In this document: positions 11,732-25,904 of the stretch, piece by piece
Layout of the letters: every line of letters begins with the position of its first letter
Position numbering within the stretch: position 1 is the stretch's first letter
Assembly: GCA_016432325.1 (NCBI GenBank)
Contig: CP066684.1
Span: forward strand, 512,001 to 576,000
Source: Candidatus Aenigmatarchaeota archaeon
Lineage (GTDB): Archaea > Aenigmatarchaeota > Aenigmatarchaeia > PWEA01 > JACQIF01
Length of the DNA: 64,000 bases
Direction: 5' to 3'
Notes under the pieces: generated by a model
Told to the model about the DNA's origin: nothing
The model's input: the letters and a program-made list of their open reading frames with translations, nothing else
The model's database searches: none
Translations under genes and position numbers: made by a program

Positions 11732-11836
11732 CCGGCTTCTTGAAATGTAGAGCACGCTTCTGCCGACGCCAAAGGCGCTGGGGATGCTTGACCTGCTTGA
11801 TGTCAAGCGGGTTTTGTCAATTATGGAGGTTTTGAA

Positions 11837-12937
11837 ATGGCTGTGATGGATGAAAGCGCCGCTGAAAAAAAATCGCGAAAGGCTAACCCGAAACTCGATG
11901 AGGATTTGAAGAAAATTCTTGAATCCCGCAAGGCTGTAATCAAAGTCGTAGGCGCCGGAGGCGCGGGCAACAACACGATCACCAGAATGGCTGCCGTGGG
12001 CGTCATCGGCGTGGAACTCATAGCGGTGAACACAGACGCGCAGGACCTGCTTTACACGGACGCGGACAGGAAGATACTCATCGGCCGCGAGCTGACGCGC
12101 GGACTCGGCGCCGGCGCAGACCCGAAGGTCGGGGAAGAGGCCGCCAAAGAGAGCAAGAAGGACATCAAGGAAGCTCTCGAAGGATCGGACATGGTATTCA
12201 TAACATGCGGATTAGGTGGTGGAACAGGAACCGGATCCCTTCCAGTTGTGGCAGAGGTGTCGAAGAGCATAGGAGCGTTGACAGTCGGCGTAGTGACGCT
12301 GCCTTTCACGATGGAAGGCAAGTCGCGCCGCGAGAACGCCGACACAGGCATGGACAAGCTGAAAAAGAACGTCGACACGCTGATAGTCATACCGAACGAC
12401 AAGCTCTTGGAGATCGTTCCTGACGTATCTCTGACGACCGCCTTCAAGGTCGCGGACGAAATTCTCGTCAACGCGGTCAAGGGCATAGCAGAGCTCGTCA
12501 CGAAGGCCGGTCTCGTCAACCTCGATTTCGCTGACGTGCGCGCGGTCATGGGCAACGGCGGGCTCGCCATGATAGGGCTCGGCTCGAGCGACACGGAGAA
12601 CCGCGCGATGGAGGCCGTCGAGAAAGCGCTGCACAACCCGCTGCTTGACATCGACATCGAAGGCGCCGGAGGCGCCCTGATAAACGTCATGGGCGGACCC
12701 GACATGACCATACGCGAGGCCCAGCAGATAGTCGAATACGTCTCTTCAAAACTCGATCCGGAGGCCAAGATAATCTGGGGTTCCCAGATTGAGGCGAGCA
12801 TGGGCGACGAAGTGCGGGCCATGATAGTCGTCACCGGCGTGAAGAAGAGCCAGCTGTACGGACCTATCGCGCGAGACATAACCACGCAGAGAAAGCGCGA
12901 GTTTGCCAACATGCTCGGGATAGACTTTGTGACATAG
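11837..12937 (+). CDS. ftsZ: cell division protein FtsZ
   Basis: GAGGAGNN, GLGGGTGTG, VNLDFADV. Confidence 0.98.
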   Translation: MAVMDESAAEKKSRKANPKLDEDLKKILESRKAVIKVVGAGGAGNNTITRMAAVGVIGVELIAVNTDAQDLLYTDADRKILIGRELTRGLGAGADPKVGEEAAKESKKDIKEALEGSDMVFITCGLGGGTGTGSLPVVAEVSKSIGALTVGVVTLPFTMEGKSRRENADTGMDKLKKNVDTLIVIPNDKLLEIVPDVSLTTAFKVADEILVNAVKGIAELVTKAGLVNLDFADVRAVMGNGGLAMIGLGSSDTENRAMEAVEKALHNPLLDIDIEGAGGALINVMGGPDMTIREAQQIVEYVSSKLDPEAKIIWGSQIEASMGDEVRAMIVVTGVKKSQLYGPIARDITTQRKREFANMLGIDFVT

Positions 12938-13041
12938 TCTACGAACGATTTTCGAACGGAGGTTCGAAAACTTCAAACGCCGTGCGTTTGAAGAAGTTCG
13001 TGGATTTGAAACCGAGGATTTCATAGTCCTCCCTTAGAAAA

Positions 13042-13259
13042 TCGCGCCTGACCGAAGAGGTCGGGCAAGGACCCAGTTCCAGTGTGTGGGTTCGTGTGGA
13101 TGTCCGGGAAGGCCGAACCTTCTCGGCACTCACCATTACAGGTTCTTGCGCGTTGGGAAACGCCTATACGGTTCATTCGCTGGGTCAAAGGAACCTAAAG
13201 CTCTTGCTTTAATCTTCCCTCCCGCGGTCGGGAAGCCTTTAAAACCCACTAGGCCGCGA
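13042..13259 (+). ncRNA. unassigned structured RNA with predicted pseudoknot
   Basis: Closing stems TCGCG/CGCGA and GTGGGTT/AACCCAC, several hairpins, loop CTGGGTC complementary to GACCCAG; G-U pairs and a GNRA loop favour the + strand. Confidence 0.5.
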
Positions 13260-13336
13260 CAGGGGGTTTTATATAGCTTACCTTTCAAGTTCCTTTGTTC
13301 CTTTTCTAAGGACGCAATCGCTTAGGTGGAGCTTTA

Positions 13337-13546
13337 ATGAACGAAAACAACCAAGAACAGAAGAAAGGAATCGTGGCGAAGATACGGGACTTCGGCAAGA
13401 ACGCGATGCGCGTGCTGCGCGTCTCGTCGAAGCCGTCCGGCGAAGAATACCTGGCCTCGGCGAAGATAACCGGCATAGGCCTTATTATAATAGGCGTCGT
13501 CGGCTTTATTATCTTCCTGATATTCCAGTTCCTTGGAATCTTCTGA
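13337..13546 (+). CDS. secE: protein translocase SecE/Sec61-gamma
   Basis: RVLRVSSKPSGEEY..AKITGIG plus one TM helix; ftsZ-secE-spt5 order. Confidence 0.95.
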   Translation: MNENNQEQKKGIVAKIRDFGKNAMRVLRVSSKPSGEEYLASAKITGIGLIIIGVVGFIIFLIFQFLGIF

Positions 13547-13555
13547 GGTGGAAAC

Positions 13556-14044
13556 GTGATACTGACGATACGGACGACGATAGGACGGGAGAACGTGGTG
13601 ATGTCTGAGATAGAGGAACGCGTGCGCTCCAAGGGCTACAAGGTCCGTGCTCTCTTGCATCCTGAAAAGCTTCGCGGCTACGTTATCATAGAAGGCGAGG
13701 AGGACGACATCAAGCTGGCCGTTTCAGGACTGCGCCACGTGAACGGCCTGATACAAAAGCCCGTCACGCTCGAACAAATCAAGCACTTCATAGAGGAGAA
13801 GAAGGGCGCGGCGATCGAACTGGTGCGTGGAGACATCGTTGAGATAGTCGGCGGCCCGTTCAAGCACGAGAAGGGCAAGATAACGAAGGTCGACGAGTCG
13901 AAGAACGAGGTCACGGTTGAACTTCTGGAAGCGGCGGTTCCGATACCAGTGACTATTACGGCGGATTCCGTGCGCCTGCTCGAGAAGAGCAAGGACGTCA
14001 TACAGCAGAGCCAGGAAGGCGCGCAGAAGAAGGAAGAAGAGTAG
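13556..14044 (+). CDS. spt5: transcription elongation factor Spt5 (NusG)
   Basis: NGN domain (RTTIGRE, LRGYVIIE) and KOW (GDIVEIVGGPFK). Confidence 0.96.
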   Translation: MILTIRTTIGRENVVMSEIEERVRSKGYKVRALLHPEKLRGYVIIEGEEDDIKLAVSGLRHVNGLIQKPVTLEQIKHFIEEKKGAAIELVRGDIVEIVGGPFKHEKGKITKVDESKNEVTVELLEAAVPIPVTITADSVRLLEKSKDVIQQSQEGAQKKEEE

Positions 14045-25064: not shown

Positions 25065-25904
25065 ATGTGGATGAATCTGATGAACACCGCAAAAACGTTC
25101 GCGCTGCTCAGCGTACTCACAGGAATCCTTCTTGCCATAGGTTACTACGTCGGCGGCTCCTCTGGCGTGCTCGTCGCGTTCGCGCTTTCTGTCGTGATAA
25201 ACTTCGTCTCGTACTGGTGGTCTGACAAGATTGTGCTGAAGATGTACGGCGCCAAGACTGTCGAACGCAAGGACGCTCCGTGGTTGCACGACACAGTCGA
25301 ACGCCTCTGTAAGGACGCGGGTCTTCCGAAACCGCCCATCTATCTCGTACGAACGAATGCGCCCAACGCCTTCGCGACAGGCCGCAACCCGCAACACGCG
25401 GCAGTTGCCGTTACAACCGGCCTCATGGACGCCCTTGAAAAAGACGAGGTGGCGGCCGTGCTCGCGCACGAAATAGGCCACGTCGCCAATAGGGACACTC
25501 TCATTTCCACGATGGCCGCGACTCTCGCCGGCGCGATAACGTGGATAGCTCACGCGGCCCTTTTCGCCGGAGACAGGAACCGCAGCGCCGCCGGTGCGCT
25601 CGCCATGATGATAGTAGTTCCCATAGCCGCCTCTCTCGTACGTCTTGCAATCTCGCGCTCGCGCGAGTTCGGGGCCGACACGTTCGGCGCGCACGTCTCC
25701 GGCCAACCGCTGAAACTCGCATCCGCGCTGCAGAAGATAGAGCACGCCGCGCGCGGCGTCCGCATGAACGCCGAGCCCGCGACGGCGCACATGTTCATAA
25801 TCAACCCTCTGACCGCCGAGAACCTCGCAGGCCTGTTTTCCACGCATCCGCCGACGGCCGAGCGCGTCAGACGGTTGAAGGAAATGGCCAAGGAAGGGTC
25901 CTAG
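25065..25904 (+). CDS. htpX: zinc metalloprotease HtpX
   Basis: PNAFATGR, HEIGH, SRSREFGAD, FSTHPP. Confidence 0.95.
   Translation: MWMNLMNTAKTFALLSVLTGILLAIGYYVGGSSGVLVAFALSVVINFVSYWWSDKIVLKMYGAKTVERKDAPWLHDTVERLCKDAGLPKPPIYLVRTNAPNAFATGRNPQHAAVAVTTGLMDALEKDEVAAVLAHEIGHVANRDTLISTMAATLAGAITWIAHAALFAGDRNRSAAGALAMMIVVPIAASLVRLAISRSREFGADTFGAHVSGQPLKLASALQKIEHAARGVRMNAEPATAHMFIINPLTAENLAGLFSTHPPTAERVRRLKEMAKEGS

Follow-up and report, generated by a model that had tools for sequence, protein, structure and literature searches.

A conserved element in the ftsZ1 3' tail with covarying complementarity to the ftsZ2 tail suggests mRNA-mRNA pairing in a DPANN archaeon

In CopA/CopT and in pT181-type attenuation, antisense pairing is initiated at a loop and proceeds by toehold strand invasion between strands that are encoded in cis and are fully complementary by construction. 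Dispersed palindromic elements are exemplified by the Rickettsia palindromic elements. An mRNA-mRNA interaction has been described in Listeria monocytogenes, where the hly 3'UTR pairs with the prsA2 5'UTR (Ignatov et al, 2020, PMC8722363; as presented in PMC7821165), and in the same account the 3'UTR of Staphylococcus aureus icaR carries an anti-RBS UCCCC motif (PMC7821165). Two FtsZ proteins with distinct roles serve cell division in many archaea (PMC8406309), and their known coordination is transcriptional; in Haloferax volcanii, CdrS is a DNA-binding transcription factor acting at the ftsZ1 and ftsZ2 promoters (PMC8406309). In our literature search, we found no description of an ftsZ tail motif or of pairing between ftsZ1 and ftsZ2.

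Here, we report on the region between ftsZ and secE in a window of 64,000 nucleotides (the whole stretch of DNA analysed; G000:C1:512001-576000), which belongs to G000, a single-contig Aenigmatarchaeota genome of 875 kb that is 90% complete; close relatives by FtsZ and Spt5 carry the name Ca. Aenigmatarchaeota. An initial annotation had proposed an RNA of about 220 nt in this region. The conserved element that we found there is smaller and shifted, and has a complementary counterpart behind the second ftsZ gene of the genome.

The conserved 3' tail of ftsZ1

The ftsZ gene of the window (11837-12937, + strand; an ORF matching TIGR00065 with E=2e-131) is the secE/spt5-linked copy, which by synteny we take to be ftsZ1. 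It is followed on the same strand by secE (13337-13546; TIGR00327, E=1.2e-17) and, downstream of it, spt5 (13556-14044). Between the ftsZ stop at 12937 and the secE start at 13337 there are 399 nt, in agreement with the gap of about 400 nt given by the initial annotation. Three DNA runs of the source study each span the ftsZ1-secE stretch in one contig with zero differences, and hence the stretch is not an assembly artefact. A TATA box at 13267-13275 (+ strand), conserved in position and sequence when aligned with G001, L060, and L064, is the probable promoter element of secE-spt5. The second paralogue, ftsZ2, lies on the minus strand (G000:C1 389895-391028), and the two tails are 135 kb apart. 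Upstream of the ftsZ1 start, at a distance of 20-60 nt, most genomes of the order have a TTGAYRTCAA palindrome (at about 11797-11806 in the window, G000:523797; L024, L026-L047), a candidate transcription-factor site. Downstream of spt5, relatives contain a tRNA gene with hairpin insertions (L060:3300-3400, L064:3080-3200).

As judged by comparison with relatives, positions 13026-13137 are a conserved ftsZ1 3' tail in which fixed blocks are separated by swappable hairpins, that is, a real and previously undescribed element within and around the proposed interval. The comparison involved four independent relatives, G001, L060, L064, and L067, whose FtsZ proteins are 86-90% identical. Common to them are GTCCTCCCTT at 13026, an ACC(C) arm, a seed block at 13075-13091, GTGTG, and CTCACCATT, except that L067 ends before this last block; the gaps between the blocks are occupied by unrelated hairpins. 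The similarity of 13026-13137 to L060 was significant, as 0 of 2000 shuffles scored as well. A BLASTN search of the interval against 100 relatives returned repeat matches only, because the conserved blocks are too short, and these were located instead through FtsZ/Spt5 synteny.

All parts of the element are on the + strand. Block B1 (13018-13040) comprises GTCCTCCCTT (13026-13035), which is invariant in 5/5 close relatives, together with its 5' flank; it is predicted to be single-stranded and complements the ribosome-binding site and start of ftsZ2. It is followed by a variable hairpin module (13046-13066), the first hairpin of the initial annotation, which is missing or swapped for unrelated hairpins in relatives. 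The seed hairpin (13069-13093) has a stem formed by 13069-75/13087-93 and an 11-nt loop, and the same hairpin is predicted in G000, G001, L060, and L064; the seed, 13077-13091, is complementary to a seed in the ftsZ2 tail. Finally, a conserved GTGTG...CTCAC-CATT closure (13094-13137) encloses the second variable hairpin module (13104-13126), and its GTGTG may extend the duplex with a CACAC of the ftsZ2 tail. All four sequences are predicted to share one layout, in which a largely unpaired first block precedes a variable hairpin, the seed hairpin exposes its seed in the loop, and another variable hairpin comes last. In L064 the element remains with ftsZ and is separated from secE by two other genes, and we therefore assign it to the ftsZ 3' end.

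Two further features overlap this region. An antisense ORF of 92 aa (12746-13024, minus strand) starts directly behind block B1, which on that strand reads as its Shine-Dalgarno sequence; the start is not kept in G001, and for this reason the ORF is probably incidental. A perfect 10-bp inverted repeat (13032-13041/13302-13311), absent from relatives, flanks the interval.

Complementarity and covariation of the two ftsZ tails

The seed at 13077-13091 is the reverse complement of the conserved ftsZ2-tail seed (G000:C1 389747-389761, minus strand), and for this 15-nt query the ftsZ2 tail is the best non-self partner in the 875-kb genome. With a longer query of 25 nt, or with the reverse query (the ftsZ2 seed), the partner ranks third or lower, and for the ftsZ2 seed two other sites in G000 outrank the ftsZ1 tail. 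In mRNA sense, the ftsZ2 tail has a helix on the 5' side and a GC-rich hairpin on the 3' side, with the C-rich seed single-stranded between them; the hairpin is followed by a pyrimidine run and in two families holds a G·U pair on the sense strand. The ftsZ2-tail seed is invariant within lineages and more conserved than the ftsZ1 seed, and both seeds are predicted to be accessible, their opening costing 0.2 and 1.5 kcal/mol. The ftsZ2-tail element is tandemly duplicated in three f4 genomes (L077, L081, L101). In four families of the order, an unannotated membrane micro-ORF of about 30 aa usually lies 3' of the ftsZ2 tail (G000:C1 ~389410-389500, minus strand; L075, L091, L102-L107); its antitermination is possible in two families and not general, as L122 has a different downstream gene.

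A pattern search with the core motif gave matches in 19/22 genomes of the order, and the reversed control matched once. The motif is sense after ftsZ1 and antisense after ftsZ2, the second copies being located just downstream of ftsZ2, and a compact form is found 3' of the ftsZ1 stop codon in two other families. In total, the two tails can pair in 18 genomes or samples from three families of the order, over ~18-25 bp in two families and with 14 core pairs in G000. As whole-tail RNAduplex was too noisy, we used ungapped scoring, which in two families (13 genomes) gave duplex scores from -41 to -59, where shuffles averaged about -19, and in the family of the window scores from -27 to -33. G010 and G021 are two further genomes with tail-tail pairing. 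In 14 genomes of other orders, tail-tail pairing was absent, with ungapped scores at background, and among class genomes outside the order the ftsZ2 seed pattern was present in 2/279. The motif match in G002 was rejected as chance, since it falls inside an acetate-CoA-ligase-like coding frame. Viral contigs contained 55 matches to a 15-mer, plausibly by chance, and none to the ftsZ2 seed.

The two seeds covary, AGTGTGT occurring with ACACACT, GGTGT with ACACC, and GGTTGT with ACAACC, and changes in them, indels included, are matched between the tails lineage by lineage. The cognate lineage was the best partner in 5/5 lineage groups, by 2-9 kcal in four of them and by 0.5 in the window's family, these comparisons comprising only about five independent lineage variants. 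The G000 duplex is the weakest of the set: it consists of 10 bp, a U·C mismatch, and then 4 bp, and its score of -26.7 is overlapped by the range of the shuffles, whose minimum is -28.3. The ftsZ1 seed of the window's family fits the ftsZ2 of family f4 better than its own (-36.5 versus -31.1), cofolding brings this family a net gain of only 8-10 kcal/mol, and the best cofold of ERR14373513 leaves the seed duplex unused. Cofolding predicted invasion of the ftsZ2 hairpin in f4 and f5, and pairing of the flanks only in the window's family.

Seven of the distinct non-Watson-Crick changes in the core were G·U and one was A·C (binomial P=0.035), in addition to three or four pyrimidine mismatches. 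Because of this G·U excess, pairing of two sense RNAs fits the data better than a DNA site, the strand of both segments being inferred from the G·U pairs only. We nevertheless considered that the motif could be a double-stranded DNA site, present in two copies per genome and serving a protein or a recombination or positioning system, in which case shared binding specificity or gene conversion would account for the match between the loci. DNA sites work in either gene-relative orientation, both copies are on the same genome strand in G000 and G019, the two genomes with both on one contig, and some f4 genomes have tandem copies, all of which would suit such a site. It is at odds, however, with the 7:1 ratio of G·U to A·C, with the non-palindromic nature of the motif, with the conserved RNA hairpins that frame it in both tails, and with the inserted hairpins that split it in the window's family. 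In addition, 2-nt indels occur mid-motif in step at both loci, and such changes would be expected to alter the helical phase for a protein but to be neutral for a duplex. Taken together, we find a DNA site unlikely.

Besides the seed, B1 and its flank (13018-13035) can form 17 bp, with one bulge, with the ribosome-binding site and start of ftsZ2. The ftsZ2 start ranked 1/888 among crude start regions (-23.9; mean -11.8, SD 3.0), and with other limits of the B1 query it ranked 1-5 of 888, the start of ftsZ1 itself ranking 107-483. The corresponding pairing scored -27.2 for L064 with L122, which come from one sample, and was weaker (-14.9) for L067 with L123. B1 and the ftsZ2 ribosome-binding site showed no clear covariation. 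The predicted contact is a post hoc lead, and the sequence of B1 looks like a generic anti-Shine-Dalgarno. Family f5 offers a mirror case, in which 11 nt of the ftsZ2 tails are complementary to the ribosome-binding site of ftsZ1 (L089, L102-L106 versus L027-L038). G035, which belongs to another order, has in its ftsZ2 tail 12 nt complementary to the ribosome-binding site of ftsZ2 itself (L120 versus L171). Also in f5, the ribosome-binding site of a small Cys-rich gene located after tfb is covered by an additional copy of the ftsZ1-type motif (L158, L159; G021, G018), which makes that gene a possible second target.

These contacts bear on a different alternative, namely that the role of active small RNA falls to the ftsZ2 tail, which would act as a C-rich anti-RBS regulator on several targets, with the ftsZ1 tail as one of these targets or as a sponge, or that the motif is carried by a convergent antisense transcript at the ftsZ2 locus. 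RNA pairing would be retained, with control running in the opposite direction. The stronger conservation of the ftsZ2 seed, the sRNA-like layout of its tail, the two G000 sites that outrank the ftsZ1 tail, and the f5 complements of the ftsZ1 ribosome-binding site and of the gene after tfb are all compatible with it. On the other hand, it leaves the invariant single-stranded B1 of the ftsZ1 tail unexplained, and its additional targets, confined to particular lineages, look like generic Shine-Dalgarno sequences, which makes this arrangement quite unlikely in our opinion. It is highly improbable that the two tails serve as nothing more than terminator or stability elements for a common RNA-binding protein and complement each other by coincidence, since the pyrimidine run after the ftsZ2 hairpin has to be set against 0 intrinsic terminator sites (a GC hairpin followed by a U run) in 12900-13400 and an exact reverse complementarity of 18-25 nt, with lineage-matched changes, far outside the shuffles.

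The proposed 220-nt RNA and the rest of the interval

The initial annotation had interpreted 13042-13259 as one pseudoknotted RNA, possibly a new ncRNA or ribozyme. The strings it listed are all in place (TCGCG at 13042 and CGCGA at 13255, GTGGGTT at 13086 and AACCCAC at 13243, GACCCAG at 13070 and CTGGGTC at 13180), and so are its hairpins at 13046, 13104, 13150, and 13196. As a unit, and with these boundaries, the RNA was not supported: conservation begins at 13026, 5' of the proposed start, and stops at 13137, and the long-range stems are at chance level. The terminal TCGCG/CGCGA helix, the GTGGGTT/AACCCAC helix, and the GGTTC/GAACC stem with its CTGGGTC loop all lack a counterpart in the relatives that cover the stretch. 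Two long-range 7-bp complements were present where 0.85 were expected (P(>=2)=0.21), and 5-bp complements were mildly enriched (21 versus 13, P=0.016). The homologue search that had been suggested thus confirmed conservation for 13026-13137 and not for 13138-13259 (for 13138-13260, similarity to L060 had P=0.18 and to G001 P=0.99). What stands of the earlier proposal is that an undescribed conserved RNA element is probably present, in a different place and without the 220-nt pseudoknot or ribozyme.

The statement that the stretch is not an SRP, RNase P, 5S, or tRNA was correct. Rfam covariance models, including those of self-cleaving ribozymes and riboswitches, gave no match at E<=10 in the region, and seven homologous ftsZ1/ftsZ2 loci were likewise without a match at E<=1. 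Archaeal RNase P RNA (RF00373) is encoded at 649010-649275 (E=1.4e-15), archaeal SRP RNA (RF01857) at 175744-176015 (128 bits), and 5S rRNA at 25282-25401 of the genome; as all of them were found elsewhere, we rejected the idea that the stretch holds one that is missing. The 16S and 23S rRNAs are also elsewhere, and the 16S match (G000:C1:637095-639272) is 2178 nt long, about 700 nt longer than the model, which suggests an intron or insertion. No tRNA was detected in the region with a covariance model or ARAGORN. By eye, a group II intron domain V, a tRNA half, a hammerhead core, and an ORB origin box were discarded for missing pairings or motif halves. For a box C/D sRNA on the minus strand, the C-like box is conserved and the D-like box is absent in G001, and the search for rRNA/tRNA guides was swamped by false tRNAs and established no guide. 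A new class of self-cleaving ribozyme was not supported, the proposed pseudoknot helices being absent in relatives.

What remains of the proposed interval is filler derived from repeats, situated ahead of the secE promoter. The segment 13138-13195, with a GNRA-type hairpin and the pseudoknot stem, has no similarity to L060 or G001. It is followed by a dispersed two-hairpin repeat (13196-13245, + strand) that ends in a TATA-like CTTTAAA; a copy is found at G000 384257 (85%, E 9e-8), with partial copies at 794213, 27949, 657785, and 104301, and several copies also end in a TATA-like box. From this repeat and the TATA box of the secE promoter it follows that the 3' strands of the proposed RNA lie in repeat and promoter-proximal DNA. 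On the other side of the element, an array of dispersed palindromic hairpin repeats (12938-13005, repeat copies at 12948-13000) has copies in G000 at 664193, 52550, 522059, 10276, and other positions (E 1e-6 to 1e-5; nine copies of the core) and is absent from the same place in relatives. A two-hairpin module in the RNase P RNA of the genome (G000:C1:649010-649275) closely resembles an insert in the G001 ftsZ1 tail (L024).

A free-standing RNA of this size at 13042-13259 might still be defended by its fold, as the 218-nt stretch has a better fold than its shuffles (z -3.7), GACCCAG/CTGGGTC pair in the MFE structure, and the same ACCC arm finds a 7-bp complement, of non-homologous origin, in L060 (P about 0.03) and none in G001. 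However, the folding signal stems from local hairpins in 13026-13137 (z -2.8, versus -0.2 for 13138-13259), and with its unconserved long-range stems, its repeat-derived 3' part, an invariant block outside its 5' end, and no Rfam match, such an RNA has hardly any probability left.

Proposed mechanism and comparison with known systems

We consider it probable that pairing in trans of the ftsZ1 and ftsZ2 mRNAs coordinates the output of FtsZ1 and FtsZ2. Under this model, 13026-13137 would belong to the ftsZ1 mRNA as its structured 3' tail, or be released from this mRNA as a processed small RNA, and both tails would be transcribed. The loop at 13076-13086 would nucleate on the exposed ftsZ2 seed, the duplex would next invade the GC-rich hairpin of the ftsZ2 tail, and in the window's family B1 might additionally cover the ftsZ2 ribosome-binding site. 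If pairing occurs, the likeliest outcome, though at less than even odds, is that the ftsZ1 mRNA would dampen ftsZ2 translation or alter the stability of the ftsZ2 3' end, thereby balancing both FtsZ proteins, the main alternative outcome being co-localisation of the two mRNAs for joint ring assembly. The genome encodes an Sm-like RNA chaperone, which we count in favour of pairing in trans, and SepF, and RNase III was not found in the 90%-complete sequence. In a broader and more tentative form that we still regard as quite plausible, paralogue mRNAs of this DPANN archaeon would recognise each other by co-evolving 3' tails plus anti-RBS arms, from ftsZ1 to ftsZ2 in one family and from ftsZ2 to ftsZ1 in another, making up a protein-free circuit that sets FtsZ1:FtsZ2 stoichiometry or gathers the transcripts for assembly of the division ring.

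If this is true, tail-to-tail mRNA pairing would add an RNA layer to the control of archaeal cell division, and would represent a rare phylogenetically supported mRNA-mRNA interaction in prokaryotes, the first between paralogues as far as our literature search showed. It is directly testable with two short RNAs, for which the lineages provide natural compensatory pairs.

With respect to known systems, the hairpin repeats at 12938-13005 and 13196-13245 are scattered across the genome, with related hairpins in its RNase P RNA, as Rickettsia palindromic elements are; here, in contrast, palindromic repeats explain the filler and not the conserved blocks of the ftsZ1 tail. As in CopA/CopT and pT181-type attenuation, a hairpin-loop seed would meet a single-stranded linker beside an invadable GC-rich hairpin, but the loci of the two ftsZ strands are separated by 135 kb, and the strands have to co-evolve. 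The CdrS system shares the cross-regulation of both archaeal FtsZ paralogues, although its control is transcriptional, and the sections of PMC8406309 that concern it do not describe RNA pairing. Similar to S. aureus icaR, B1 is a C-rich anti-RBS block in a 3'UTR; icaR pairs with its own RBS in the account of PMC7821165, whereas B1 fits the RBS of the paralogue (rank 1-5) rather than that of ftsZ1 (rank 107-483). In function, the predicted ftsZ pairing would resemble Listeria hly-prsA2 as outlined in PMC7821165, in which the 3'UTR of one mRNA targets in trans a second mRNA from the same functional pathway and the expression of both is coupled. It differs from that pair in that the partners are paralogues, in that the main contact is tail to tail and covaries across three families, and in that it is predicted for an archaeal host, in whose genome no RNase III was detected.
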